A stretch of 64,000 nucleotides of DNA from Myxococcales bacterium (GCA_023248635.1 JAHFED010000010.1:13275-77274), one strand, 5' to 3'; shown: positions 40,758 through 57,311, counted from the stretch's first letter. Program-made: numbers and translations. The notes: generated by a model from the sequence alone, not told the origin.

Positions 40758-40835
40758 GCAGCAAGCGCGGGACCGTTGACGTCGTCATGTGCGGGTGCGA
40801 CGAGCCCCTTCCCCTCCCAAAAGAAGAACAAGCCG

Positions 40836-42989
40836 ATGTCTGACACCCCCGAGCAGAACGACACCCCCTCCACCCCCGAGACGCCCGAAGGCAGCGAGGC
40901 CGTGGCGTCGTCGTCGTCGGCCCCGGCAGCTTCGTCGGCGGGCGCGGTGGATACCGGTCGGCGCATCGATCCTGCTCTGCTGACGCGTGGCCAGGGCCCC
41001 ATGAAAACGGGCAACCAACGCCCCCTGCGCCGCGGTCGCGAAGCCCCGCCCGAGTCGGCCATTCGCGCTCCCGAAGGCGTCGACGTCACCAGCGGAGCCG
41101 TTCGCGTCGTCGAGCCGGCCGCGGCCTTTGCGCGCGGTCGCCCCGATGCCCGCGATCGAAACCAAGAGCGCGGCCCCGTCGTCGACGCCGCCACCATCGC
41201 CGAACGCGCGGCCCGTAATGAGCCCGCGCCCCGCAACGATGGTGATCGTCCCCGCGGACCCCGCGGCGACGGTCCTCCCCGCGGCGACGGACCACCCCGT
41301 GGTGATGGACCGCCCCGTGGCGATCGCGGCGATCGCTCGGCCCGGCCTCAGGGTCGCGACGGCAAGAAACCCCGCCCCGGTGATCGCAAGGTCGAGCGCG
41401 GCCCCCCGCAGCCCCGCGGCCCCGACTACTCCGACGTCGCCCCCATCGTGGTGCAACACGACGACGACGTCGGCGATTTCGCGGCCATGCTCGCCGCCGA
41501 GGGTGCCGTGCAACGACGCGATGTGCGCATCGGTGACAAGGTGCACGCCCTCTGTGTGCACGTCGGCAGTGACGCCGTGTTCTTCGAGCTGAGCAAGACC
41601 CAGCAGGCCCACGCCGCCCGCGCCGAATTCCTCGACGAGAAAAGCGGTGAGATGACCATCCGCGTCGGCGACGGCATCGACCTCTTCGTCGTCGCCTTCA
41701 AAGATGGGGTGCTGCTCTCGCCCAAGATTGGCCGCGATCAGATCGACGTCGGCATGCTCGAGCAGGCGCGCATCTCGTGCATCCCCATCGACGGCACCGT
41801 CACCGGCGTGAACAAGGGCGGATTCGAGATCTCCATCTCCGGAAATTCACGCGGCTTTTGCCCCCTGGGCCAGATCGACATTCACTTCGTCGACGACCCG
41901 CAAACCTTGATTGGCAAGACCCTCGCCTTCCTCGTGAAAGAGGTGAAAGAGGGCGGCAAGAACGTCGTGCTCTCGCGCCGCGCCCTGCTCGAGAAAGAGC
42001 GCGCCGAGAAGGCCTCTAAGCTGCGTGAGACCCTCGCCGTCGGCCTGGTCCTCGACGGCGTCGTCACCCGCATCCAGCCCTTCGGCGCCTTCGTCGACCT
42101 CGGCGGCATCGACGGCTTGGTTCCCGTCTCCGAGCTGGCCTACGGCCGCGTCACCGACCCCAACGAGATCGTCAAGGTCGGCGAGATGGTCAAGGTCGAG
42201 ATCACCCGCATCGAAGACGACCCCCATCCCAAGCGCCAGGGCCAGCTGCGCATCGGCTTGTCGATGAAGGCCATGCAACAGGACCCCTTGGTCGAGCGCA
42301 TGAACGAGCTCTCCCCCGGCGCCCAGTTCGTCGGCCGCGTGATGCGGCTCGAGCCCTTCGGCGCCTTCGTCGAAGTGTTCCCCGGCGTCGAAGGCCTGGT
42401 GCACGTGTCTGAGATCAGCGATCGACGCATTCGCCATCCCGAAGATGTGCTGAAGGTCGACGAGCACGTGCAGGTGCGCGTCAAAGACGTCGACCTCGCC
42501 CGCCGCCGCGTCAGCCTCTCCATGCGCGAGGCCCACAGTGACGAAGGTGGTGGGCACGAGCCCGTGGTGCAGACCTTCCCCGACCGCGATGAGCGCCAGC
42601 AGCAGGCTTCGTCGAAGCCGAAGCTCGGACGTGGCACCCGCGTCGTCGGCGTCGTCGACCGCATCGAGCGCTATGGGGTGTTCATCAACTGCTACCCCGA
42701 GGGCAGCGATCCCGGCAGCGCCGAGAAGCTCGGCACCGCGTTGATGCCGGCCTCAGAGACCGGCACGCCCCGCGGTGCTGACCTCGCCAAGGCCTTTCCC
42801 ATCGGCAGCCAGGTGAGCGCCCTCATCATCGACGTCGACGAGCGCGGGCGCCTGAAGGCCTCAAAGACCGCACGCGAGCAGGCCGAAGAGCGCGCCCTCG
42901 TCGACGAATACAAGAAAGACAAAGGCCAGGTCGGCGCCGGCCTCGGCACCTTCGGCGATCTGTTGAAGCAGAAGCTCAACTCGAAGTGA
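40836..42989 (+). CDS. S1 RNA-binding domain protein (ribosomal protein S1-like, four S1 repeats) with an Arg/Gly/Asp/Pro-rich disordered N-terminus.
   Basis: Repeated S1 folds (GxVxG...GFGAFV...GLVHVSE). N-terminal RGDGPPRGDGPPRGDGPPRGD repeat. Start at MSDTPEQ. Confidence 0.85.
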   Translation: MSDTPEQNDTPSTPETPEGSEAVASSSSAPAASSAGAVDTGRRIDPALLTRGQGPMKTGNQRPLRRGREAPPESAIRAPEGVDVTSGAVRVVEPAAAFARGRPDARDRNQERGPVVDAATIAERAARNEPAPRNDGDRPRGPRGDGPPRGDGPPRGDGPPRGDRGDRSARPQGRDGKKPRPGDRKVERGPPQPRGPDYSDVAPIVVQHDDDVGDFAAMLAAEGAVQRRDVRIGDKVHALCVHVGSDAVFFELSKTQQAHAARAEFLDEKSGEMTIRVGDGIDLFVVAFKDGVLLSPKIGRDQIDVGMLEQARISCIPIDGTVTGVNKGGFEISISGNSRGFCPLGQIDIHFVDDPQTLIGKTLAFLVKEVKEGGKNVVLSRRALLEKERAEKASKLRETLAVGLVLDGVVTRIQPFGAFVDLGGIDGLVPVSELAYGRVTDPNEIVKVGEMVKVEITRIEDDPHPKRQGQLRIGLSMKAMQQDPLVERMNELSPGAQFVGRVMRLEPFGAFVEVFPGVEGLVHVSEISDRRIRHPEDVLKVDEHVQVRVKDVDLARRRVSLSMREAHSDEGGGHEPVVQTFPDRDERQQQASSKPKLGRGTRVVGVVDRIERYGVFINCYPEGSDPGSAEKLGTALMPASETGTPRGADLAKAFPIGSQVSALIIDVDERGRLKASKTAREQAEERALVDEYKKDKGQVGAGLGTFGDLLKQKLNSK

Positions 42990-44290: not shown

Positions 44291-46387
44291 ATGAACGACG
44301 CGCCCAGCGACAATGCCCTGCTCTCCTACGCGCAGGACCCTTCCCTTCACGGCGGACTGCCACCCTTCGCCGCCATCGACGCCGAGCAGGTGGTGCCCGC
44401 CATCGACCAGCTCCTCTCCGATCTCAGGGCGCAGCAACAGGGCCTCGAGAAGCAACTTTCGACGACGACGGCGCCCGCTTATGCCGACGTCGTCGAAGCC
44501 GTGGCCGACATCACCGAGCCCCTGGAGCGGGCCTGGGGCGTCGTCGGCCACCTGATGGGCGTCAACAACAGCCCGGCGTTGCGCGAGGCCCAGCAGCAAG
44601 CGCAGCCCAAGGTCGTCTTGGCGCTGATGGCCCTGGCCCAGTCGCCGGCGCTCTTTGCGGCCCTGAGCAAGGTGAAAGCGTCGTCGTCGTTTGCTTCGTT
44701 GACGGCCACCCGGCAGCGCATCGTCGACAAGAAGCTGCTCGAGGCGCGGCTGGCCGGCGTCGCCTTGCAAGGCCCCGAGAAGGAGCGCTTCAACGCTGTT
44801 GAGCAAGAGCTCTCGGAGCTGGGGACGCGTTTTGCGAACAACGTGCTCGACGCCACCAAGGCGTGGTCCTTGACCCTCGATGACGCTGCCGACGTCGACG
44901 GCCTGCCCGCGAGCTGGAAGGCCATGGCCACGACGTCGGGCGACGCCGAAAAAGGTCCGTGGAAGGTGACTCTGGACATGCCGGGGTTCCAGCCATTTTT
45001 ACGCTATGGAACACGCGCAGACCTGCGGGAAAAAATCTATCGCGCTTATCTCGCGCGCGCCTCCGATCTCGACGGAGGACAACATGACAATCGACCGCTG
45101 ATCGCGCGCATTCTTGAGCTGCGACAGGAGAAAGCCCGATTACTGGGCTTCAGTGGCTTTTCGGCATTGTCGCTGGCGACCAAAATGGCTGCGTCGACGG
45201 CGGCGGTGCACCAGCTGCTCGACGAGCTGCGCACGGTCTCCTTGCCAGTCGCGAAAGAAGAGCTGCGCGAGCTCGAGCAGATCGCGGGACGACCGGTGCG
45301 CCACTGGGACGTCGACTTCTACGCCGAGAAACTGAGGCAGGAGCGCTACGACTACTCCGAAGAGGAGCTGCGCAACTACTTCGCGTTCCCCGCAGTGCTC
45401 GAGGGCTTGTTCGCCCTGGTCAAGCGCCTCTTCGGCATCGACGTCGTCGATGACACTGCCAACGCGGCCCGCTGGCACGACGACGTGCGCTTCTTCCGGG
45501 TGTTGCGCGGCGGGCAACCCATCGCGGCCTTCTTCCTCGATCCCTACGCGCGCCCCGCCGACAAACGGGGAGGGGCCTGGATGGACGACTGCGTGGCTCG
45601 GCGAGCGTCGTCGTCGTCCTCGCGCCTGCCGGTGGCCTATCTGGTGTGCAACATGCCCCCGCCTCCGTCGCCAGGCAAAGCGGCGCTCCTGCCCTTCCGC
45701 GACGTCGAAACCCTCTTTCACGAGTTTGGCCACGGCCTGCAGCACATGCTGACGGCCGTGAACGACGTCGACGCCAGCGGCATCCGGGGGGTCGAGTGGG
45801 ACGCCGTCGAGCTGCCCAGCCAATTCATGGAGAACTGGTGCACCGACGACGCCACGCTCCGCGCCTTCGCCCGTCATACGGACACGGGGGCGCCCTTGCC
45901 GAAGGAGCTGCTCACCAAGCTCAAGGCCAGCAAGACCTTCCGCCAAGCCTCGATGATGATGCGGCAGATCCTGTTCGCCACCGTCGACCTCGCCCTGCAC
46001 GAGCGGCCCTTGGCCGCAGGACAGAGCGCCTTCGACGTGCACCGCGCCATTGCCGTCGACAACGCGGTGCTGCCGGTGCTCGCCGAGGATCGCTTTCTCG
46101 CAGCGTTCAGCCACATCTTCGCCGGCGGCTACGCGGCTGGGTACTACAGTTACAAATGGGCCGAGGTGCTCTCGGCCGACGCCTTCGCCGCCTTCGAAGA
46201 AGCCGGCGTCGACGACGACACCCAGGTTCGCGAGGTCGGTGCGCGCTTCAGGGACACGGTGTTGGCCCTGGGCGGTGGTATGCATCCCCTCGAGGTGTTT
46301 CAACGCTTCCGCGGTCGGCCGCCGTCGACGAAGGCGTTGCTGCGGCATGCTGGCCTCCTCAAGGCTGATGCCGTCTTGCGTCAGTAG
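44291..46387 (+). CDS. M3-family zinc metallopeptidase (oligopeptidase A / peptidyl-dipeptidase Dcp type).
   Basis: HEFGHGLQH zinc motif and a downstream Glu region; 698 aa; typical M3 length. Confidence 0.9.
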   Translation: MNDAPSDNALLSYAQDPSLHGGLPPFAAIDAEQVVPAIDQLLSDLRAQQQGLEKQLSTTTAPAYADVVEAVADITEPLERAWGVVGHLMGVNNSPALREAQQQAQPKVVLALMALAQSPALFAALSKVKASSSFASLTATRQRIVDKKLLEARLAGVALQGPEKERFNAVEQELSELGTRFANNVLDATKAWSLTLDDAADVDGLPASWKAMATTSGDAEKGPWKVTLDMPGFQPFLRYGTRADLREKIYRAYLARASDLDGGQHDNRPLIARILELRQEKARLLGFSGFSALSLATKMAASTAAVHQLLDELRTVSLPVAKEELRELEQIAGRPVRHWDVDFYAEKLRQERYDYSEEELRNYFAFPAVLEGLFALVKRLFGIDVVDDTANAARWHDDVRFFRVLRGGQPIAAFFLDPYARPADKRGGAWMDDCVARRASSSSSRLPVAYLVCNMPPPPSPGKAALLPFRDVETLFHEFGHGLQHMLTAVNDVDASGIRGVEWDAVELPSQFMENWCTDDATLRAFARHTDTGAPLPKELLTKLKASKTFRQASMMMRQILFATVDLALHERPLAAGQSAFDVHRAIAVDNAVLPVLAEDRFLAAFSHIFAGGYAAGYYSYKWAEVLSADAFAAFEEAGVDDDTQVREVGARFRDTVLALGGGMHPLEVFQRFRGRPPSTKALLRHAGLLKADAVLRQ

Positions 46388-46949: not shown

Positions 46950-47666
46950 TCAGGGTGGCAAGAGCGGCAGCGGATCGACGGGCGCCTTGCGCCGCCGCAC
47001 CTGGAACTGCAACCGAGGGGAGACGCCAGACAAGCCCGAAGCCCCGATCACGCCGACGACGTCGCCTGCCTGTAGCTGCTGCCCCACGCTGACGCTGGTG
47101 CTCTTCAGGTGGGCATAGACCGTCACCAGGTCGCCTGGATGATTGACAACGACGAAGACGCCGGTTCTCGTGTCCTGCGTGCCGGCGAAGGCCACCTGTC
47201 CGGCGGCGGCCGCGCACACGGGGGTTCCTGCTGGCGCAGCGATGAGCACGCCGTCGTAGCCGCCGCGGTCCTTCGCGCTGCCCGCCGAAAAATCCCGCAA
47301 CACGATGCCGTCGACGGGCCACAGCAGCGAAGGGCCCCCCCCCGACGGTGCGGGGGGCACCGGGGCCGGACTTGACCGCACGCCGAGCGCAGGCGCCCCA
47401 GCCGGAATGAAGAGCACCTGGCCGGCGGCGACTTCGTCGGCAGACTGCAGGCCATTGACCTCGACGATCTCCTCGACCGGAAGCCCGGCCTCCGCAGCGA
47501 TGTCCCAAGCGTTCTGCCCCGGCCGCACGGCGACCAGGTACCCCGGCGGGAGCGGCGGCTCCGACGGCGGGGAAACGGTGGCGCAGGCTGCGACGACGGC
47601 GACCAACGCGGCGCACAGCGTCGACAGCAGCGCTCCGGCGGGCAAGTGCTCGAGGGGCGCGATCAC
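46950..47666 (-). CDS. LysM-domain M23 peptidoglycan metalloendopeptidase (lipoprotein).
   Basis: Signal/lipobox LVAVVAAC|A. LysM (YLVAVRPGQNAWDIAAEAGLPVEEIVEVNGL). M23 core (VVNHPGDLVTVYAHL ... GDVVGVIGASGLSGVSPRLQFQV). GTG start at 47666 chosen because ATG 47777 would lie 13 bp from the tRNA. Confidence 0.75.
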   Translation of the reverse strand: MIAPLEHLPAGALLSTLCAALVAVVAACATVSPPSEPPLPPGYLVAVRPGQNAWDIAAEAGLPVEEIVEVNGLQSADEVAAGQVLFIPAGAPALGVRSSPAPVPPAPSGGGPSLLWPVDGIVLRDFSAGSAKDRGGYDGVLIAAPAGTPVCAAAAGQVAFAGTQDTRTGVFVVVNHPGDLVTVYAHLKSTSVSVGQQLQAGDVVGVIGASGLSGVSPRLQFQVRRRKAPVDPLPLLPP

Positions 47667-47789
47667 CAAGGGCAGCCGTGTTTCGGGAAGAGGTGCCAAA
47701 GGGGCCCTGCGCGGAGGTCGTACCAAAGACAAAAGAAAGCGGGACGCCAACGCGTCCCGTTTCCCACCCACTGTCAAACAACAGAAGAT

Positions 47790-47866
47790 TGGTCGGAGCG
47801 ACAGGATTTGAACCTGCGACCCCTAGACCCCCAGTCTAGTGCGCTACCAAACTGCGCCACGCTCCG
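47790..47866 (-). tRNA. tRNA-Pro (anticodon GGG), CCA encoded.
   Basis: Cloverleaf folded by hand: acceptor CGGAGCG/CGCTCCG with C1:G72 (the Pro hallmark), D-stem GCGC/GCGC, anticodon stem CTAGA/TCTAG, loop CTGGGGG (U33, GGG, G37), T-loop TTCAAAT, discriminator A, CCA. Confidence 0.85.
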
Positions 47867-47887
47867 TCTGATGAGTCTGGTATCCGG

Positions 47888-48367
47888 GTGGAACCCACGA
47901 TGTCAACGACTCCGAGAGAGAGACCCATGCCCGCGCCTTCCCGAACCCACGTCGCCGAAGGCAACCTCGCCAAAGTCATTTACGCCGTCGTGATCTTCGT
48001 GGTCGTGGTGGCCGTCGGCACCTTCATGAAGCCGTGGCTGGACGAATATGAGGTGAAAACCGCGGCGCGCATCGCGTGCAACGAAATCATCAAGGGCACG
48101 CGCTACAAGCTCCCCGAGCAAGTCAAGAACGCCGAGAACACGTTCGAGCGCAAGGCCCTGATGGCGGGCGTCCACCTGAAGACGGGGCAGTCCTACGTCT
48201 TCGAAGTGAGCGACATCAGCAACGAAGACCTTTGGCGCTGCCACTTCAAGGCTGCCTGGAAGAGCAGCACGCCGCTGTTGATCGTGAGCGCTCTCTACCC
48301 GGAGGCGCCGCCGATCCAGCGCGTGCACCGCCTCGACAACACCTACGACACCAAGAACTCGTTCTGA
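47888..48367 (+). CDS. Hypothetical single-pass membrane protein.
   Basis: TM VIYAVVIFVVVVAVGTF, good codon bias. The start may be the internal ATG (MPAPSRTH) at about 47927. Confidence 0.55.
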   Translation: MEPTMSTTPRERPMPAPSRTHVAEGNLAKVIYAVVIFVVVVAVGTFMKPWLDEYEVKTAARIACNEIIKGTRYKLPEQVKNAENTFERKALMAGVHLKTGQSYVFEVSDISNEDLWRCHFKAAWKSSTPLLIVSALYPEAPPIQRVHRLDNTYDTKNSF

Positions 48368-48369
48368 GC

Positions 48370-49782
48370 ATGCTCTTGGACCCAGGACTGTTGTCGCGGC
48401 TGGTCGGTCGCGCCCTGGGCCGGGGCGGCGCCTTCGCCGAGATTTACGTCCAGCGTCGCAAGAGCGCTGGCTTCGCCTTCGACGATGGCGAATTGCGCGA
48501 TGCCCAGGCCAGCTGCGACTTCGGCGTCGGCATCCGCGTCATCAAGGGCGCCGCCGTCACCTACGCCTGGTCCGACGACACCTCCGATGCCGCCCTGCTC
48601 GCCTGCGCCGACGCCGCTGCCCGCATCGACGGCGGCGACGAACCCGTGGTGATCGCGCGTCCCCTCGCCCCCCGCCAACGCCCCAGCCATGCCGACCCCC
48701 AACGGGCCCCAGGCGATATTCCCCTCGAGCGGCGCGCCACCCTGGTGCGCCGCGCCGACGCCGCCGCCCGGGCCGCCATCGCGGCCTTTGGAGCCACCTT
48801 GGTGCAGGTGGCCTGCAGCTACGCCGACGTCGACGAAGAGGTCTTGATCGTCAACTCCGAAGGCCTGGTGCTGAGCGACCGGCGCGCCCTGTGCCGGCTG
48901 GGCGTCGAGGTCGTCGTCGACGACGGGGGGCAGCGGCGCACGGGCACCGGTGGCGGCGGATCCCGCATCGGCCTCGATCATTTCGACGCCCGCTCCCAGT
49001 CCCCCGAGGCCCACGCCGAAGAAGCGGCGCGTATGGCGGTGGCGCAAATCGGCGCCCGCGCCACACCCCGCGGAGACAGCGTCGTCGTCTTGGGTCCAGC
49101 GTCGTCGGGGGTGCTGCTGCACGAGGCGGTCGGGCACGGGCTCGAGGCCGATTTCATTCGCAAAAAGACGTCGCTGTTTACCGCGCGCATCGGCCAGAAG
49201 GTGGCCAGCGAGCTCTGCTCCGTCGTCGACGACGGTACCCTGCCCGGCAAGCGGGGCTCCCTGAACGTCGACGACGAAGGCACACCGACCGAACGCACCC
49301 TGCTCATCGAGCGCGGCGTGTTGAAGGCCTATCTCTCTGACCGCCACAACGCCGATCTGCTGGGCATGGAGCGCACCGGCAATGGTCGACGGCAGAGCTT
49401 TCGTCATCCGCCCCTGCCCCGCATGACCAACACTTTCTTGCTGCCCGGCCACGACGACCCCGGCGACATCCTGAAAGGCGTGAAGGTCGGGCTCTACTGC
49501 CGCGCTTTCGGAGGAGGTCAGGTGGACATCGCCAACGGCTCCTTCGTCTTCGAGGTGCGCGAGGGCTATCTCATCGAAGACGGCAAGCTCACGGCGCCCG
49601 TGAAGGGGGCGACGCTCGTCGGCAACGGTCCCGAGACCTTGGCGCGCATCACCCGCGTAGGACACGACGCCGAGCTCGACCCCGGCGTCTACACCTGCGG
49701 CAAGGATGGCCAAAGCGTCCCCGTCGGCGTCGGCCTGCCCACCGTGCGCATCGACGGCATCACCATTGGGGGCACGGGATGA
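48370..49782 (+). CDS. tldD: Metalloprotease TldD.
   Basis: HEAVGHGLEAD motif, GxC...GG TldD/PmbA fold signatures, and a C-terminal GITIGG. ATG 48370 directly follows the upstream stop. Confidence 0.9.
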   Translation: MLLDPGLLSRLVGRALGRGGAFAEIYVQRRKSAGFAFDDGELRDAQASCDFGVGIRVIKGAAVTYAWSDDTSDAALLACADAAARIDGGDEPVVIARPLAPRQRPSHADPQRAPGDIPLERRATLVRRADAAARAAIAAFGATLVQVACSYADVDEEVLIVNSEGLVLSDRRALCRLGVEVVVDDGGQRRTGTGGGGSRIGLDHFDARSQSPEAHAEEAARMAVAQIGARATPRGDSVVVLGPASSGVLLHEAVGHGLEADFIRKKTSLFTARIGQKVASELCSVVDDGTLPGKRGSLNVDDEGTPTERTLLIERGVLKAYLSDRHNADLLGMERTGNGRRQSFRHPPLPRMTNTFLLPGHDDPGDILKGVKVGLYCRAFGGGQVDIANGSFVFEVREGYLIEDGKLTAPVKGATLVGNGPETLARITRVGHDAELDPGVYTCGKDGQSVPVGVGLPTVRIDGITIGGTG

Positions 49783-51179
49783 GCGGGCGCGCCGATCAGT
49801 GGGTCGCGGATCAGCTCTGGGCTGAAGATTTGGCCATGGCCCTCGTCGACGCCGCTCGGAAGGTGGGGGCCGCGGCTTGCGATGCGACGGTGGGCCTGTC
49901 TGCCAGCTTGCAAGCGTCTGCACGCGACGGCGCGGTCGAAGACGTCACCCGCAGCCAAAGTCGCTCCGCAGCGTTGCGCGTGATCGTCGACGGCAAGCTG
50001 GGCTTGGCGACGTCGTCGGACGCTCCCACCACCGCCGCTGACATTGAAGAGCTGGCCCGGACGGCGGTGGGAATCGCGGCGTTGTCGTCGTCGTCGCCGC
50101 ACAATGTCGTGTTGCCGGGTGCCCAAATGACGGCCAACGAGGTGCGCGAAGCCGGCGAGGCCCTGCGCACCTGGGACGACGACACGGCTCTGCTCGACCC
50201 CGCCTGGCCCGTGGAGCGGGCGTTGCTCACCGAGCGGGTGGTACGGGGTCACGAGGGCGTCTCTGGCGTGCGCGACGTTTCAGCGGGCGTGCGGCGCGGG
50301 CTCTTCGCCTTGGCGACGTCGACGGGCTTTCTGGGCTCGATGCGGGGCACCACCGCCCAGCTCAGCTGCTCCGCCGTCGTCGAAGATGGCAGCAAGAAGC
50401 AGATCGAGTCCTGGTGGTCCCAAGCCCGCGCGATGAAGGGGGTGCAAGACGCCGTCGTCGTCGCCGACCTTGCTGCGCGCCGGGCCTTGGCGCGCCGGGG
50501 AGCGCGTCGGGTGCCCTCGCAGTCGATGCCGGTCATCTTCGATCCCAACATGACCCGCGCCTTCTTTGGCGGCGTGTTGGCGGTGGTGAGCGGCGAGGCC
50601 GTGGCCCGCAAGCAATCCTGGCTCGCCGACGCCGTGGGCGCAAAGGTGATGCCCGCGGGTCTGGTGCTCGTCGACGATCCCCTGCTGCGGGGCGGCTTTG
50701 GCTCTCGGGTGTTCGACGGCGAAGGCCAGGCGGCCGAGAAACGCGTCATCGTCGACGACGGCGGCCGCCTCACGGGCTTCTTGCTCGACGGCCGCTCGGC
50801 CGCTCGTCTCGGCTTGCCCAACACAGGACAGGCCGCGCGGGGGTCGACGTCGCTGCCCCACCCCGCCCCGACCAACACGACGCTGATGGGGGGGAGTGGC
50901 GATCTCGCTGCGATTGTGGGCGACACCGCCAACGGTCTGTTGGTGACCAAGCTGCTCGGGCGCGGCGCCGACGCCACCACCGGCGACCTCTCGCGCGGCG
51001 CGGCCGGTTTCTTCGTCAAAGACGGCGCCATCGCCTTTCCCGTCGAAGACCTCACCATCGCGGGCAATGCGCGAGAGATGTTGCTGGCCCTCGATCGGGT
51101 AGGCGCCGACGTCGACGAACGCTCCTCGTTGCGGGTGCCGAGCGTGCGCTTTGCGGCTCTGTCGGTGGGGGGCACATGA
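49779..51179 (+). CDS. pmbA: Metalloprotease PmbA/TldE.
   Basis: TldD/PmbA-family paralog without HExxH. ATGA overlap with tldD. Confidence 0.85.
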   Translation: MSGRADQWVADQLWAEDLAMALVDAARKVGAAACDATVGLSASLQASARDGAVEDVTRSQSRSAALRVIVDGKLGLATSSDAPTTAADIEELARTAVGIAALSSSSPHNVVLPGAQMTANEVREAGEALRTWDDDTALLDPAWPVERALLTERVVRGHEGVSGVRDVSAGVRRGLFALATSTGFLGSMRGTTAQLSCSAVVEDGSKKQIESWWSQARAMKGVQDAVVVADLAARRALARRGARRVPSQSMPVIFDPNMTRAFFGGVLAVVSGEAVARKQSWLADAVGAKVMPAGLVLVDDPLLRGGFGSRVFDGEGQAAEKRVIVDDGGRLTGFLLDGRSAARLGLPNTGQAARGSTSLPHPAPTNTTLMGGSGDLAAIVGDTANGLLVTKLLGRGADATTGDLSRGAAGFFVKDGAIAFPVEDLTIAGNAREMLLALDRVGADVDERSSLRVPSVRFAALSVGGT

Positions 51180-52639
51180 GCGCGCCCTTGGGCCGAGCCG
51201 TCGTTGCGGTGTGCCTGTTGCTGGGGGCCTGTCGCGGCGAACGCAGCACCACCGCCAGCTTCGCCCCCCTGGGCGACCCGTCCCGCCCGGCACCGGGAGC
51301 ACCCGATTTGAGCAGCGAGCCCGACGTGTCGGCCCTGGGCTCTGACGTCAGCAACCTGCCTCGCCTCTATCCTCACGGCGATTGGCTGCCCATCGAAGCT
51401 CCGCTGCTGTCGATGCAGGTGCTGACCCATGTGTCGGTCAACGGCCGGCAAGCGGTGGCGGTGCTCGACACCGGCGCCATGGGCACGACGATGTCGCAAC
51501 CAATGGCCGCGCGCTTGGGCATCCTCGACGACAACACACCGCGGGGCGCCCCAGTGCGGGCCGTCGACGCCCACGGCGACGTCATCTTTGGCGAGAAGCT
51601 CGAGCTCGGGGAGCTGACCATCGGTCGACATCGTTTTCGCCGTGTCTCTGTGACCGTGCTGGGAGATTCGCCGGATCTCTTCCTCATCGGCGCCGACGTC
51701 TTGCAGGATCTCGATCTCTATCTGGCCGCCGACGAAGGCCTGGTCGGCGTCTTCGAGGCTGGGCAGGCCCCGCGCCAACACGGTGAGCTGGTGGTGTCCC
51801 TGCAGAAAGAGGAGCGACAGCTCTTCTTGCGCGCCGCCGCCGATGGCCGACCGCCGGGTGGCAACGGCACGTCGGGACGCTCGCGCTTCGGTCTGCTCAT
51901 CGACACGGGCGCCTGGAACACCTCAGTGCCGGCGTCGATCGGCATCAACGGCGGCATTCCCGCCGACCTATCTTACTCGGCCACCACCGTCGGCGTCGCC
52001 GGCGAACAGGAGGCCCGCGGCCGCTTCATCATGAACCCGCTCTATCTCGGCACCAGAGATCTCGGCGTCGGTCGCGTGTTAGCGGTGTCGTCGACCATCG
52101 ACAACGGCGACGGTTTCGGCTTGCTCGGCAACGACGTCTTCATGCGCTTTCATACGGTGGTCTCTTTTCACGACGGCGAGCTGCGCCTGCGCGCCCTACC
52201 GGTCCGTCCCGCCGAACGCAGCCGCGGGCCTGCGGGCGTGTCTTGCAAGAGCGATGGCCACACCGTGCCCTGCGTGCAGGTGGGTCTGGCGCCGCACGTC
52301 GCCGACGTTGCCGACGACGACCTCCCGGGCATCTGCCTGCAGATCGACGTCGACGCCGCCTACAGCGGGCAGACCGTCGAGCTCGCGATCACGGCCGAAG
52401 ATCCAAAGGCCATCTCTTTGTTCAACGGCGGCGCCATCCGCGCCTTTCTCTCGGTCGATCAGACGGGCTCGCACCACTGCTTCGCGATCTGGCGCCAACT
52501 CGAGAAGCTCGGCCTCACGCAGACGACACGGTTGACCCTGCGCTGGGTCCGCACCGAAGGCGTCATCTGGCCCTGCGATCCCATGAAGACCCGGTGTATT
52601 ACGTTTACGGGTCCTCTGGCGCACCTCGCCATCAAATGA
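51176..52639 (+). CDS. Lipoprotein with two tandem retropepsin-like aspartic protease domains (pseudo-dimeric, pepsin-like).
   Basis: Lipobox LLLGAC|RG. Two Asp-Thr-Gly-Ala signatures, each followed later by a hydrophobic-Gly flap-like region (AVLDTGAMGTTM...LIGADVL and LLIDTGAWNTSV...LLGNDVF). ATGA overlap with the pmbA stop. Confidence 0.7.
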   Translation: MSAPLGRAVVAVCLLLGACRGERSTTASFAPLGDPSRPAPGAPDLSSEPDVSALGSDVSNLPRLYPHGDWLPIEAPLLSMQVLTHVSVNGRQAVAVLDTGAMGTTMSQPMAARLGILDDNTPRGAPVRAVDAHGDVIFGEKLELGELTIGRHRFRRVSVTVLGDSPDLFLIGADVLQDLDLYLAADEGLVGVFEAGQAPRQHGELVVSLQKEERQLFLRAAADGRPPGGNGTSGRSRFGLLIDTGAWNTSVPASIGINGGIPADLSYSATTVGVAGEQEARGRFIMNPLYLGTRDLGVGRVLAVSSTIDNGDGFGLLGNDVFMRFHTVVSFHDGELRLRALPVRPAERSRGPAGVSCKSDGHTVPCVQVGLAPHVADVADDDLPGICLQIDVDAAYSGQTVELAITAEDPKAISLFNGGAIRAFLSVDQTGSHHCFAIWRQLEKLGLTQTTRLTLRWVRTEGVIWPCDPMKTRCITFTGPLAHLAIK

Positions 52640-52706
52640 ATTCACGGACAGCGCTTCGCGTGTCGGTGAATTGTCTACCGGTCCATCGCCTCGCAGTCAT
52701 GAATTT
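52636..52706. repeat. Copy of the ~65-bp double-hairpin intergenic repeat, followed by an AT-rich (about 30% GC) 40-bp tract.
   Basis: atgaattcacggacagcgcttcgcgtgtcggtgaattgtctaccggtccatcgcctcgcagtcatgaatt, then ctagtttgagcgtatgtaattatattatgaattggtcgaaatg. Confidence 0.8.
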
Positions 52707-52743
52707 GCCTGCCTAGTTTGAGCGTATGTAATTATATTATGAA

Positions 52744-53232
52744 TTGGTCGAAATGAGCAGATTTAGTCTTGTTGTCGACGCCATCGGACCTGCCCGCGCG
52801 GTCAAGCTGATGAGCCTCTACCCGCCTTACCTGGGCGCTGGCGTCCGCGTCGACGACGTCGACCCGCAGCTTCGCTCCGTCTCCGTCTCCATGCGCCTCA
52901 CGCGTTGGAACAAGAACGCGGTGGGAACCCATTTCGGCGGCTCCTTGTATTCGCTCTGCGATCCCTGGTTCATGCTCTTGTTGATGGCGCGGCTTGGCCC
53001 CGATTTCATCGTTTGGGACAAGCGCGCCGTGATCGAGTTCCGCAGCCCGGGCCGCGGCAGGGTGAAGGCCCACTTCGTCGTCGACGATGCCTGGCTGGCC
53101 GAGCTGCGCGCCGAAGTGGAGCGCAGCGGCCGGGCCGAGCCGGTGCTGCACGCCGAAGTCACCAACGACGACGGCGGCGTGGTCTGTCGCGTGGAGAAGG
53201 TCATCTCGGTGCGCAAGAAGCCACCGCGGTGA
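52744..53232 (+). CDS. DUF4442-type hotdog-fold protein (YiiD C-terminal domain-like thioesterase).
   Basis: N-terminal LMSLYPPYLGAGVRV motif and the size (162 aa) match DUF4442. The first codons are AT-rich, so the start could be at 52753. Confidence 0.6.
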   Translation: MVEMSRFSLVVDAIGPARAVKLMSLYPPYLGAGVRVDDVDPQLRSVSVSMRLTRWNKNAVGTHFGGSLYSLCDPWFMLLLMARLGPDFIVWDKRAVIEFRSPGRGRVKAHFVVDDAWLAELRAEVERSGRAEPVLHAEVTNDDGGVVCRVEKVISVRKKPPR

Positions 53233-53331
53233 GACGAGATCGTCTGCGCGGGCTTGCTGTGGCCGGCGCCGCGGTCTAACGACGCCCTGTTCTTACAATC
53301 GTGCTCGACGGGAGTCGGGCTGGAGGCTTTC

Positions 53332-53460
53332 ATGGGCAAAGGTGACCTGCGTTCTCGTCGTGGCAAGATCTACCGGGGCACCAACGGCAAGACGCGCCCC
53401 CAAAACGGCAAGAAGCGCGATCACACCGCCGAGGCGCGTTCGACCACCACCGGCAAGTGA
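53332..53460 (+). CDS. Small ribosomal protein bTHX (THX/PSRP4-like), 42 aa.
   Basis: MGKGDLRSRRGKIYRGTNGKTRPQNGKKRDH... closely parallels Thermus THX ([25 protein letters not shown]). A ggagg Shine-Dalgarno lies 7 nt upstream and a strong terminator hairpin downstream. The ORF track fused it to an in-frame upstream extension (53254). Confidence 0.75.
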   Translation: MGKGDLRSRRGKIYRGTNGKTRPQNGKKRDHTAEARSTTTGK

Positions 53461-53482
53461 CGCCGAGCTTCTCCGTCTGACA

Positions 53483-53520
53483 AAGCGCGCCCTCGAGGCG
53501 CGCTTTGCATTTGTTTGGGA
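53483..53520 (+). terminator. Rho-independent terminator after the THX gene.
   Basis: AAAGCGCGCC-ctcga-GGCGCGCTTT is a perfect 10-bp stem, followed by gcatttgttt. Confidence 0.6.
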
Positions 53521-53605
53521 AGCGGGCTCGCCCTGCTCCCAAGCAGGGATGTCACGCCAAGGACCCAGCGACGTGGCTTTTGCGGCCTCGTGCTAAGGCG
53601 GGGGC

Positions 53606-55756
53606 ATGAGCTCTAAGGCGTGCAGCACCCGCGTCACCAAGGTCATCGTCCATGGCAATGGCGCGCTCGTCACCCGACGGGGCGTCGTCGCTGGCGGCAG
53701 TCGTGAGGTCTTGATCGAGGGACTGCCGCTGCTCTTTTCGAGCGACACCCTGCGCGTGCGCCCCGTCGGCGAGGGAGGATGCACCGTCGGCGTCGTCGAC
53801 GAAGTGTGCCGCATCGGCGTGACCAGCGCTGCGCCCATCGCGGGGGCTGCCGCCTTGGTCGAGGCCCGGCTCGCCGTCGCCGCCAACGATCAGCGCCGGC
53901 GGGTGATGAAAACCCTGCTGCAACACGCCGACGCGGGGATCGAGCTGCCTCCGGCCGACGTCGAAGGCCTGCCGGACACGGCCTTGCTGCTGCGCCTTTC
54001 CACCGTGAATGCCAAGCGTCGTCGACAGCTGGTGAGCGAAGTGCGCGTGCTCGATGAACAGGCACGGGAGCTCGCCCGCGTCGAGAAACGCGCGGCCCTC
54101 GACGTACGCCCCGACGAAACGCCGCCCCGGATCCTGCGGGGATTGCGGGTCGGTGTCGACGCCAGCGCCGATGCCGAGATCGCGGTCGAGTACTTCGTCG
54201 CCGCCGCCCGCTGGGTCCCTTCCTATGCGCTGCACCTGAGCTCGACTGAGCAAGGCACGCGGGCCCGGCTGGTGTTGGGAGCGTTGGTCGCCCAGGCCAG
54301 TGGCGAAGATTGGGACGACGTCGAGCTGCGGGTGTCGACGGCGGATCTGCGACGAGAGACCACCCTGCCCGTGCTGCACTCCTGGCGCCTGGGTCGCGCC
54401 CAGCCCGCGCGGGCCAAGGGCTTTCGCCCTCTGCCTTCCGATTTGCCGGGGCTCTTTTCGGGCTGGGATCGCTTTCCCCTCGGGCCCGCCAGCGCTCCAC
54501 CGACGACGACCCAGGCGACCAAAGCCACCGGGCGCCGCGCCAGGACCGAGCGGGCCGAAGTCGAAGAAGAAGGCGTCCTGAGCTTGGATGAGCACACCGA
54601 CGCCGCGCTCGCGAAATACGACACCGGGGCGGCCGCTGAACCCGAGCCCTTGGCGGGGAAAAGGAAGGGCGGGGGCGTCTTGGGCGCGGTGATGGCGGCG
54701 TCGGTGGCTCTGCCATCGCAAGCCCAAGCCTTCAGTTCGGCACCGGGTGGTTCTCCCCTGCGCGCCGCCGCCGCCCCCAGCGCGATGCTCTTCAGCAAAG
54801 ACCAGAGTGCCATGCCGCTGCCGCCGCCCGCGCCCAGACCCGTCGTCGTCGACGAGCTGCCCCCTCGCTTGCGCACCAGCTCGCTGCGCATGGCCGCCGC
54901 CGACGAAGGCACGCACCTGCGGGGACTGCTGCTCCCCCTCGATCCTTTGCAGCGCCTGGAGTGGTTGCTCGACGCCGCCGACGTCGCCGCGGGCGATGCA
55001 ACCAAAGCTGAGTTGCGGCGGGCCATCGCTGCCCTCGAGCAGGCGCGACGTCAGCTGCTGGGACGGCCCCTGCCCCGCGGGACCGCCGCCGTGGGCGGCG
55101 GCGGAGCCGCAGCGATCTTTGGCACGGCGGCACTCACGAAAACGAGCATCCCCGGCGATGGCAACGATCACCGTGTGGAGGTCCACGAAGAAGAGGGCGA
55201 CGCCGCCATCTTGCACCTGGCCGTGCCCCGCGAGTCCCTCGATGTGTGGCGGGCCTGTCGTTTCAAGGCCCAGCAGCCCCTGCCGACCGGACCGGTGCAG
55301 GTCTACGAAGAAGGCGCCTTCGTCGTCGCCGGACGCGTGGAAGGCGGCGGCGGCGGCAAGCCTCTCACCTTCAACCTCGGCGTCGATCCCGATGTGCGCA
55401 TCAAGGCTCGCACTCCCCACACGCACCAAAGCGAGAAGGGGCTCATGGGAGGCACGACGCAGATCGAGCAGAAGGTGCTCGTCGAGGTGCGATCGAGCCG
55501 CAAGGTGCCGGTGCGTCTTTCGCTCTACGAGCGCATGCCCATCGTCGAGGAAAACCAGAAAGACGTCGTCGTCTCAGCCTTGACGTCAAAGCCCCCAGCG
55601 GTGCGCACCGACAAGGGGCCCAACGACGAGGAGCTCAAAGGCGGGCTGCGCTTCGACCTCTCGCTCATGCCCGGCGACCTCGCCGTCGTCGAACACAGCT
55701 ACACCATCACCCTGCCGGCCAAGAGCGAGTTGGTCGGTGGCAACCGGCGGGAGTGA
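53606..55756 (+). CDS. DUF4140/DUF4139 family protein (TIGR02231 / mucoidy-inhibitor MuiA-like), paralog 1.
   Basis: N-terminal DUF4140-like beta region (TRVTKVIVHGNGALVTRRGVV...LIEGLPLLFSSDTLRVRPVG). Long Ala/Pro-rich middle. C-terminal DUF4139-like region ending ...VEHSYTITLPAKSEL. Confidence 0.65.
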   Translation: MSSKACSTRVTKVIVHGNGALVTRRGVVAGGSREVLIEGLPLLFSSDTLRVRPVGEGGCTVGVVDEVCRIGVTSAAPIAGAAALVEARLAVAANDQRRRVMKTLLQHADAGIELPPADVEGLPDTALLLRLSTVNAKRRRQLVSEVRVLDEQARELARVEKRAALDVRPDETPPRILRGLRVGVDASADAEIAVEYFVAAARWVPSYALHLSSTEQGTRARLVLGALVAQASGEDWDDVELRVSTADLRRETTLPVLHSWRLGRAQPARAKGFRPLPSDLPGLFSGWDRFPLGPASAPPTTTQATKATGRRARTERAEVEEEGVLSLDEHTDAALAKYDTGAAAEPEPLAGKRKGGGVLGAVMAASVALPSQAQAFSSAPGGSPLRAAAAPSAMLFSKDQSAMPLPPPAPRPVVVDELPPRLRTSSLRMAAADEGTHLRGLLLPLDPLQRLEWLLDAADVAAGDATKAELRRAIAALEQARRQLLGRPLPRGTAAVGGGGAAAIFGTAALTKTSIPGDGNDHRVEVHEEEGDAAILHLAVPRESLDVWRACRFKAQQPLPTGPVQVYEEGAFVVAGRVEGGGGGKPLTFNLGVDPDVRIKARTPHTHQSEKGLMGGTTQIEQKVLVEVRSSRKVPVRLSLYERMPIVEENQKDVVVSALTSKPPAVRTDKGPNDEELKGGLRFDLSLMPGDLAVVEHSYTITLPAKSELVGGNRRE

Positions 55757-55760
55757 GCCC

Positions 55761-57311
55761 ATGACAACCCTCGATCACCGCTTGGAACAGGTCACCATCT
55801 ACGAAGACCGCGCCGACGTCGTCCGCACGGCCGCGATCACTTTGACGTCGGGAGCGCACCCGCTGCGCTTCACCGCGTTGTCGCCCCTCATCGACGAGGA
55901 TCGGCTGGTGGCCCGACTCGAGGGACCAGGACACATCGACGACGTCGTGATTGTGCGCAAGGTGGTCGACGACGGGCTCGACGAGATCCAGGCCCGCCGC
56001 GCCCAACGATCCCGCGAGCGCCAAGCCTTGCAAGCCGAGCTGCAACGGGCCCAGGACGACGTCGACCTCTCCCTGCACGAGCTGCGCGCCACCGAGCAAT
56101 GCCTGCAGTGGTGGGCCAGCGCCAACGCGCGGCGGCTGGGCAAAGGCGAAGGAGGCGACGACGTCGACACCGGCCTCGATGCTGGTTTTGCCGATTTCCA
56201 GAAAAAGCTGGTGCAGGCCGCTGACGTCGTCGACGCTGCCCACGCTGGCCTGAGCTGCGTGCAAGAAGCCCTCAAACAAATCGACGTCGAAGACGCGCGC
56301 CCCGAGCCCACGCGCAAGCGCCGGGTCTGCGACGTGATCGTGCGGGCCTCGTCGACCGGGGGCGAGTGCCGCGTCGTGCTCTCGACGGTGCTCCCCTGTG
56401 CCGCCTGGCGTCCGACCCACGAAGCCCGCCTCCTGCGCTCGGAGGCCAAGGCCACGAGCGTCCGCTTCCTCACCCACGCCGCGGTGTGGAACCGCACCGG
56501 CGAAGACTGGAAGAACGCCAAGCTGGTTTTGTCGACGGCGCGGCCAGCTTTGGGAGCCGAGTTGCCGCCCCTGTCCGAAGACCGCCTGCACCTGCGCCAA
56601 AAGAGTGCCGAAGAACGCAGGACCATCGTCGTCGAGCACCGCACCGAAGCCGTGCCTCCATCGGCCACCCAAGGAGGCGCCCCAGGCGTCGACGACGGCG
56701 GCGAAGCCCGGGTGTTCTCCGTTGCCGCCGCCGACATCCCCGACGACGGCCGTCCTCACCTCGTCGAGCTGGCCTCGTTCGAAGCCCCCTGCACCCTGGC
56801 TCACGTCGCCATCCCCGAGAAAGCGGCGCAGGTGTTCGTGCGCGCCAGCTTCGTCAACAGCGGGCGCGGCCCCATCCTCGCGGGGCCCGTCAACCTTGTC
56901 GACCAGGGCGCGTGGACGGGGACGGGCGACGTCCTTTACACCGGCGCCGGCGACGACCTCGACCTCTCCTTCGGCTCTGACGATCGCTTCGCGGCCAGCA
57001 TCAACAAGCGCTGCATCGTCGAGAAGAAAACGCTGGGCAAAGACATCGAGCACTGGTTGCAAGAGGTGACCGTGACGTCGACGTCGACGACGCCGCAGCA
57101 GGTGTTGGTGCTCTTGCGTTTGCCGGTGTCTGAGCTGGCGCAGGTGAAGGTGCTGCAGTCCCCCCAACACGGCACCGAAGGAGAGCTCAAGCTCGACAGC
57201 CACGGCCTGGCCCGCGTGACGACGACGATCGAACCGGGACGGGAGCGCCGCATCGCCGCTGCCTTCGCCTTCGACACCTCTGGGGACGTGCGCCTGCCGC
57301 CGCCCTGGTGA
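55761..57311 (+). CDS. DUF4140/DUF4139 family protein, paralog 2.
   Basis: LEQVTIYEDRADVVRTAAITLTSGAHPLRFTALSPLIDEDRLVARLEG at the N-terminus has the same pattern as paralog 1. The C-terminal VVLLRLPVSELAQVKVL...GDVRLPPPW region completes it. It starts 5 bp after the paralog-1 stop. Confidence 0.65.
   Translation: MTTLDHRLEQVTIYEDRADVVRTAAITLTSGAHPLRFTALSPLIDEDRLVARLEGPGHIDDVVIVRKVVDDGLDEIQARRAQRSRERQALQAELQRAQDDVDLSLHELRATEQCLQWWASANARRLGKGEGGDDVDTGLDAGFADFQKKLVQAADVVDAAHAGLSCVQEALKQIDVEDARPEPTRKRRVCDVIVRASSTGGECRVVLSTVLPCAAWRPTHEARLLRSEAKATSVRFLTHAAVWNRTGEDWKNAKLVLSTARPALGAELPPLSEDRLHLRQKSAEERRTIVVEHRTEAVPPSATQGGAPGVDDGGEARVFSVAAADIPDDGRPHLVELASFEAPCTLAHVAIPEKAAQVFVRASFVNSGRGPILAGPVNLVDQGAWTGTGDVLYTGAGDDLDLSFGSDDRFAASINKRCIVEKKTLGKDIEHWLQEVTVTSTSTTPQQVLVLLRLPVSELAQVKVLQSPQHGTEGELKLDSHGLARVTTTIEPGRERRIAAAFAFDTSGDVRLPPPW

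Follow-up and report, generated by a model that had tools for sequence, protein, structure and literature searches.

A stretch of 64,000 nt from a Myxococcales bacterium (GCA_023248635.1 JAHFED010000010.1:13275-77274), here called the window and numbered from its first letter, carries the genes tldD and pmbA followed directly by a third gene. The third protein is best explained as an exported, lipid-tethered aspartic endopeptidase of two lobes, which has its own substrate and acts independently of TldD and PmbA. As a whole, this explanation is probable, though by no means assured. The association with tldD-pmbA is confined to one lineage, and the protein family is wider. A first-pass annotation of the same DNA had recognised a lipoprotein with two aspartic protease domains and had combined the three gene products into a three-protease module for peptide maturation or quality control. 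The predicted two-lobed architecture has held up, while the module is doubtful. The three genes are located as follows.

48370-49782, + strand: tldD, metalloprotease subunit with HEAVGH; first, second and third PmbA_TldD domains of Pfam; starts without a signal peptide
49779-51179, + strand: pmbA (tldE), non-catalytic partner subunit; PmbA_TldD domains of Pfam; starts without a signal peptide
51176-52639, + strand: third open reading frame (ORF), putative two-lobed retropepsin-like aspartic protease lipoprotein of 487 amino acids (aa); its start overlaps the pmbA stop

Domain architecture of the third protein

The third gene has 488 codons counting the stop, and the protein has 487 aa; the first-pass annotation had given 488 aa. 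The protein is divided into the following parts, all encoded on the + strand.

51176-51232: predicted signal peptide with the lipobox L16-G17-A18-C19, read from the sequence
51233-51313: variable tether, residues 20-46, probably disordered (predicted local distance difference test, pLDDT, <50 for residues 15-45; not conserved in the alignment)
51314-51421: conserved N-terminal segment, residues 47-82 (G55, D57, S59, L61, P62 and W70 invariant; pLDDT 91-97 from residue 50)
51422-51790: lobe 1, retropepsin-like domain (predicted catalytic D98-T-G-A at 51467-51478)
51791-52210: lobe 2, divergent retropepsin-like domain (predicted catalytic D243-T-G-A at 51902-51913)
52211-52636: C-terminal domain, predicted beta-sandwich (six conserved cysteines, C357, C366, C387, C435, C467 and C474)

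Exactly two D-T-G-A motifs are present, at residues 98 and 243. The first-pass annotation had counted them correctly and placed them about 230 residues apart; the spacing is 145 residues. Both lobes also contain the hydrophobic-hydrophobic-Gly motif, as LFLIGAD in lobe 1 (LIGAD at residues 170-174) and as LLGND in lobe 2 (residues 316-320). The motif pair of clan AA proteases is thus complete in each lobe. The flap hairpins differ, with a conserved DAHG in lobe 1 and an invariant RGRF in lobe 2.

In Pfam searches, lobe 1 (residues 85-177) exceeded the gathering cut-offs of PF13975 (70.2 bits, cut-off 28.2) and PF13650 (49.8 bits, cut-off 24.3). The search against retropepsin and Ddi1 profiles, which the first-pass annotation had proposed as a check, gave a divided answer: lobe 1 was recognised, and lobe 2 and the Ddi1 profile PF09668 stayed below their cut-offs. 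Lobe 2 is considered retropepsin-like because of the lobe-to-lobe profile alignment and the structure prediction, its sequence score being below the cut-off. The hhalign comparison of lobe 1 and lobe 2 profiles covered 106 columns (E 1.4e-4, probability 53%), with the DTGA motifs and LIGAD/LLGND in register. Among profile matches of lobe 1 in the PDB, Ddi1 protease domains ranked first (E 5.5e-10), followed by the structure 9iy9 and by Rickettsia ApRick (ApRick 1e-3).

An AlphaFold model calculated on the alignment reached a pLDDT of 88.2 and a predicted template modelling score (pTM) of 0.86. Values below 50 were restricted to residues 1-3 and to the stretch around the tether listed above. 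A structure search with this model retrieved the following groups, given with score and aligned length.

9iy9, Bacteroides fragilis putative endopeptidase: 20.3, 239 residues
Pepsin-family enzymes: about 16, 225-235 residues
Covalent dimer of human immunodeficiency virus 1 (HIV-1) protease: 15.2, 181 of 192 residues, 2.8 A
Single retropepsin domains: 8-12, about 100 residues

The best superposition was obtained with 9iy9, and Foldseek yielded the same picture. Pairing of the lobes within one chain, in a pepsin-like or tethered-dimer arrangement, is well supported as a predicted fold. The single-chain pseudo-dimer of the first-pass annotation agrees with the Pfam match of lobe 1, the lobe alignment, the model and the superpositions.

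The N-terminus, MSAPLGRAVVAVCLLLGAC, reads as a signal peptide with R7 and a hydrophobic core, ending in a lipobox cysteine as in bacterial lipoproteins. Of the 27 homologues whose N-terminus is complete, 25 have this cysteine after a small residue (alignment read by eye). Signal peptide and lipobox suggest that the earlier description of the protein as exported and lipid-anchored is probably correct. Residues 20-46 combine low model confidence with sequence variability, which fits a flexible tether. The adjoining segment of residues 47-82 matched no Pfam family and could be a pro-segment or a piece of an inter-lobe sheet. The six cysteines of the C-terminal domain probably form three disulfides. 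No close structural relative of this domain was found.

Protein family and conservation

A search of 5.8 billion proteins returned 99 homologues, most of them 430-520 aa long and of the same architecture as the third protein. Precomputed Pfam matches to Asp_protease_2 and gag-asp_proteas exist for nearly all of them, and some already carry the NCBI name "retropepsin-like aspartic protease". All identified source records are metagenome-assembled genomes of Myxococcota or "Deltaproteobacteria". Conservation was evaluated in an alignment of 28 sequences with identities down to 37%. Invariant residues comprise D98, T99, G100 and A101 of lobe 1, D243 and G245 of lobe 2, L170 and G172 in LIGAD, L316-L317-G318-N319-D320, D131 and G134 in the flap of lobe 1, R281-G282-R283-F284 in that of lobe 2, and the cysteines C357, C366, C467 and C474. 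For T244, A246, C387 and C435, conservation is 90% or more. The third gene is beyond chance, because 99 homologues share its length and architecture and the motif residues are invariant.

When 1.84 billion representative proteins were searched with a profile, the full-length family, taken at E<=1e-30, came to 54 clusters and is thus small; at E<=1e-3 the search returned 3,721 clusters. Many of the weaker matches are proteins of ~300 aa with two matched stretches. Two or more D[TS]G motifs were present in 52 of 56 proteins of 250-360 aa, and 22 of the 56 had a lipobox-like N-terminus; exported tandem retropepsin-like proteins are therefore considered common, though uncharacterised. The lobe 1 profile matched the first or the second half of the short tandem proteins in no fixed order, and that of lobe 2 was too weak for this comparison. 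One protein of 544 aa (P0160) contains four tandem retropepsin-like repeats with the D-T/S-G motifs VDTGA, VDSGA, LDTGA and LDTGA, pointing to larger arrays of retropepsin-like domains in bacteria.

Relation to known aspartic proteases

The structurally best-matching relative, 9iy9, is a two-lobed protein of Bacteroides fragilis annotated as 'exported protein / putative endopeptidase', with a crystal structure released in 2025. A literature search found no paper on 9iy9 and none on a bacterial two-lobed retropepsin-like enzyme. The short tandem proteins of bacteria (~300 aa) resemble the third protein in having two D[TS]G motifs per chain and, in many cases, a signal peptide or lipobox; they differ in lacking its conserved N-terminal segment and cysteine-rich C-terminal domain. 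Given the abundance of exported tandem proteins, the crystal structure and the existing NCBI family name, the design is not an undescribed one. It is already known from sequence databases, and the third protein adds one more uncharacterised example.

The likeness to the pepsin family (MEROPS A1: pepsin, renin, plasmepsins and the bacterial shewasins) is structural only, with identities of 10-14%. No pepsin-family Pfam model appeared among the matches of the third protein at E<=1. In contrast to pepsins, its lobes are shorter and have kept a recognisable similarity both to one another and to single-lobe retropepsins, two flap hairpins are predicted instead of one, and a predicted lipid anchor and an extra C-terminal domain are added. 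Bacterial pepsin homologues have been described (PMC2761423).

Assignment to the Ddi1 type, also proposed by the first-pass annotation, was not confirmed. PF09668 scored 14.6 bits (cut-off 26), and neither a ubiquitin-like (UBL) nor a ubiquitin-associated (UBA) domain was found in the third protein, whereas eukaryotic Ddi1 is a cytosolic homodimer with both accessory domains. The characterised bacterial retropepsin-like enzymes, APRc/ApRick of Rickettsia (PMC4140852) and RloA/RimB of Pseudomonas (PMC11957051), have one lobe and form homodimers. APRc has been described as membrane-embedded, whereas the third protein is predicted to be lipid-anchored. The score for the APRc-type clan AA DTGA family (TIGR02281) was 40.7 bits, below the NCBIfam cut-off of 57.95. 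The Rickettsia autotransporter peptidase lipoprotein RapL was considered as a precedent and rejected; in the paper, RapL is called no more than a lipoprotein peptidase, and the term 'retropepsin-like' is kept for APRc, a different protein.

No bacterial single-chain two-lobed retropepsin-like protease has an assigned substrate or role, despite thousands of related sequences and one crystal structure. The family offers a clean study case, with strictly conserved motifs, detectably similar lobes, a predicted lipid anchor and an extra, probably disulfide-rich domain. It bears on the old question, taken up in PMC2761423, of how duplication and fusion of a one-lobe ancestor gave rise to pepsins, and enlarges the small set of envelope aspartic proteases of Gram-negative bacteria (APRc, RloA).

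Gene order of tldD, pmbA and the protease gene

In the window, tldD and pmbA are joined by an ATGA overlap (GGGATGAGC at 49779). A second ATGA overlap (CACATGAGC at 51176) connects pmbA with the third gene and implies co-transcription. Both junctions had been read correctly before, as had the HExxxH motif of TldD, which is HEAVGH at residue 251. All three PmbA_TldD Pfam domains were detected in TldD as well as in PmbA, and a scan of the PmbA sequence for HExxxH found none, in accordance with a TldD/PmbA pair. The NCBIfam models scored 441.6 bits for TldD (equivalog cut-off 513) and 190.3 bits for PmbA (equivalog cut-off 438). Because both values are below the cut-offs, the two proteins are regarded as family members and not as proven equivalents of the E. 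coli proteins.

For comparison, 33 loci were collected, nine of them added by a metagenome scan. Directly downstream of pmbA, the protease gene is found in the window as well as in ten relatives (59-84% identity; L014/L015, L001, L022, L023, L024, L025, L019, L004, L009/L026 and the P0035 contig). In the nine linked relatives with available DNA, the distance between the pmbA stop and the likely protease start is -4 to +6 bp; the P0035 contig, represented by gene calls only, has a 3-bp gap. In a neighbour-joining tree, the linked copies group as a single clade, from uncultured Myxococcota. L002 (74% identity) falls inside this clade and has an acetyl-CoA synthetase gene upstream instead of pmbA, which is either a true rearrangement or an assembly artefact. 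L002 and L013 derive from the same metagenome-assembled genome, JANNAY01, in which the protease gene is split over two contigs.

Outside the clade, the linkage to tldD/pmbA is absent in eleven distinct loci. The conservation across Myxococcota that the first-pass annotation had named as a check therefore applies to one clade, the window and ten relatives; with L002 and the eleven outside loci lacking it, the arrangement does not follow the protease family wherever it occurs. Several outside loci have a KamA-like radical S-adenosylmethionine (SAM) gene upstream and a MatE transporter gene downstream, others have unrelated neighbours. The upstream proteins of 466-469 aa were read as lysine-2,3-aminomutase-like (KamA-like) radical SAM proteins because of a weak Pfam LAM_C match and a CxxxCxxC motif. 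In sister clades (loci L005/L016, L007, L010, L012/L017 and L027), a MatE gene follows the protease gene closely, often with a KamA-like gene and a small ORF before it. MatE is also found near the protease gene in L006, L018, L021 and L030. With the MatE link in three separate branches, this context may be the older one. Neither MatE nor KamA-like genes were found elsewhere in the window.

In two distant family members, low-complexity proteins of 436 and 586 aa are encoded 2-3 bp before the protease gene, at L020 6687-7997 and L021 6238-7998, respectively. Each contains a hydrophobic segment that likely spans the membrane; they have no Pfam match and no detectable similarity to each other. The upstream proteins of 466-469, 436 and 586 aa were considered as diverged PmbA/TldD, for which BLASTP revealed no similarity.

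Within the linked clade, further genes are retained. The DUF4140/DUF4139 pair downstream is kept in L004, L009, L014, L019 and L022; L023 shows the first gene only, followed by the contig end. The genes for GlnE, the S1-domain protein and the M3 peptidase also stay near, with local inversions. In the window, L004, L009 and the P0035 contig, the M3 oligopeptidase gene, together with the S1-domain gene, is no more than a few kb away from tldD-pmbA, in varying orientation. The conserved order is thus wider than the three protease genes. The genes upstream of tldD vary between relatives, while the three-gene block keeps its tight junction.

Proposed function and alternative explanations

The third protein is proposed to be an exported aspartic endopeptidase built of two fused retropepsin-like lobes. 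It would be tethered to a membrane through a lipid anchor at its N-terminus and a flexible linker of ~27 residues. Where the lobes meet, D98 of lobe 1 and D243 of lobe 2 would share one active site, like that of pepsin or of a retropepsin dimer, and activate a water molecule for cleavage of a peptide held beneath the two different, conserved flap hairpins. The C-terminal beta-sandwich, presumably rich in disulfides, would probably serve for binding of a substrate or of the envelope. Alanine in the D-T-G-A position of renin and HIV protease goes along with near-neutral activity (PMC2761423). Since both motifs of the third protein are DTGA, the analogy suggests a near-neutral pH optimum, and activity near neutral pH is plausible.

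The gene would have come to lie directly behind pmbA in a single lineage of uncultured Myxococcota and be co-transcribed there with tldD-pmbA. Co-transcription in this lineage is very likely because of the ATGA overlaps in the window and the close junctions in the relatives. Envelope or extracellular proteins are the most likely substrates of the protease, and its link to TldD/PmbA would be at most a co-regulation of proteolysis and peptide turnover. TldD/E of E. coli is cytoplasmic. It acts as a heterodimeric metalloprotease on the leader peptide of microcin B17, which it cleaves (PMC5810440). For the window proteins, different compartments are predicted because the third protein has a signal peptide and a lipobox and neither TldD nor PmbA begins with a signal peptide. 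Independence from TldD/PmbA is suggested by these compartments together with the restriction of the linkage to one clade, the other gene contexts elsewhere and the housekeeping neighbourhood. Three points weigh against the proposed enzyme and its independence. Lobe 2 alone reached 18.9 bits with PF13975 (E 0.0024; profile positions 9-91 of 92), below the cut-off of 28.2. The nearness of D98 and D243 is deduced from superposition statistics of a predicted model. Finally, the tight three-gene junction despite varying upstream genes could reflect selection for co-expression.

This last point leads to the module of the first-pass annotation, in which the exported aspartic protease and cytoplasmic TldD/PmbA work in one pathway. 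They could mature an exported ribosomal peptide, or the lipoprotein could cut envelope or extracellular proteins whose imported fragments are degraded by TldD/PmbA and the M3 oligopeptidase. Some peptide natural-product gene clusters contain TldD/E homologues. Together with the start/stop overlaps in the window, the junction kept in ten relatives down to 59% identity in front of varying upstream genes and the nearby M3 oligopeptidase gene in four of the loci, this speaks for a module. However, the linkage in one clade amounts to a single evolutionary event, lost in L002 within the clade and absent from the eleven loci outside, and the collinear DUF4139 genes downstream indicate an order that is not specific to the three genes. 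The enzymes are predicted to reside in different compartments. Neither a precursor peptide nor a modifying enzyme, as expected for a maturation cluster of microcins or other peptides made on the ribosome and modified after translation, was found within ~12 kb on either side, small ORFs not having been searched systematically. The literature search found no paper linking TldD/PmbA with an aspartic protease in this manner. An upstream membrane protein of 159 aa (47888-48367), suggested in the first-pass annotation as a partner, is not conserved as such; its homologue abuts tldD only in L014, the closest relative (49% identity), and apart from a partial match in L009, ~4.7 kb from tldD, the other loci gave no match. 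A functional three-protease module is accordingly judged unlikely. Slightly less credence still is given to the exported protease and cytoplasmic TldD/PmbA as one selected functional unit, a proteolytic pathway spanning compartments, for instance for exported peptide maturation or for extracellular cleavage coupled to intracellular peptide degradation. If true, selection on such a unit would account for a junction of -4 to +6 bp being kept while the upstream flanks change. Functional coupling to TldD/PmbA would rest on a gene order that arose once. The operon link matters only if it is functional, for which the present evidence gives a low chance.

Two further alternatives concern the third protein itself. 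A pepsin-fold protein may bind a partner without catalysis, as an inhibitor or receptor, like the wheat xylanase inhibitor, the soybean basic 7S globulin or Bla g 2. Inactive homologues typically have substitutions in the catalytic motifs. Here, the invariance of D98-T-G-A and of D243/G245, the high conservation of T244 and A246 and the retained hydrophobic-hydrophobic-Gly motifs are those expected of a working catalytic centre, which makes a non-catalytic role rather improbable. The lobes might also pair between two chains, giving a dimer with two active sites, as suggested by the homodimers of APRc (PMC4140852) and RloA (PMC11957051). The confident monomer model, its superposition on the covalent HIV-1 protease dimer and, over ~230 residues, on pepsins, and the strongly different flap sequences, as expected of fixed non-equivalent partners, leave very little room for this arrangement.

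Flanking genes

The neighbourhood of the three genes is of a housekeeping type. It comprises GlnE, an S1-domain protein, an M3 peptidase, a phosphoribosyltransferase-like gene, tRNA-Pro, DUF4442, two DUF4139 genes, a histidine kinase and an acyl-CoA dehydrogenase. Located features are listed below.

40776-42989: S1-domain protein
44291-46387, + strand: M3-family oligopeptidase (thimet / oligopeptidase A type)
47790-47866, - strand: tRNA-Pro, anticodon GGG; ~20 bp upstream of the 159-aa ORF and divergent from it
47888-48367, + strand: ORF for a small, predicted single-pass membrane protein, 159 aa from GTG; hydrophobic stretch VIYAVVIFVVVVAVGTF; ATG alternatives at 47900 and 47927
53087-53596, + strand: ORF of 169 aa, overlapping the end of the DUF4442 gene; no Pfam match
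53606-55756 and 55737-57311, + strand: two adjacent DUF4140/DUF4139 proteins after the protease gene

The 159-aa ORF ends 2 bp before the start of tldD and may be the first gene of the tldD transcription unit. Its product matched no Pfam family above threshold. The tRNA-Pro gene is so near that very little space is left for a promoter of the + strand unit. A promoter and terminator scan of 47200-53400 detected no promoter-like site, and terminator-like sites occurred at chance level. The interval of the 169-aa ORF (53087-53596) is occupied in the closest relative, L014, by genes for endonuclease V and a Thx ribosomal protein.

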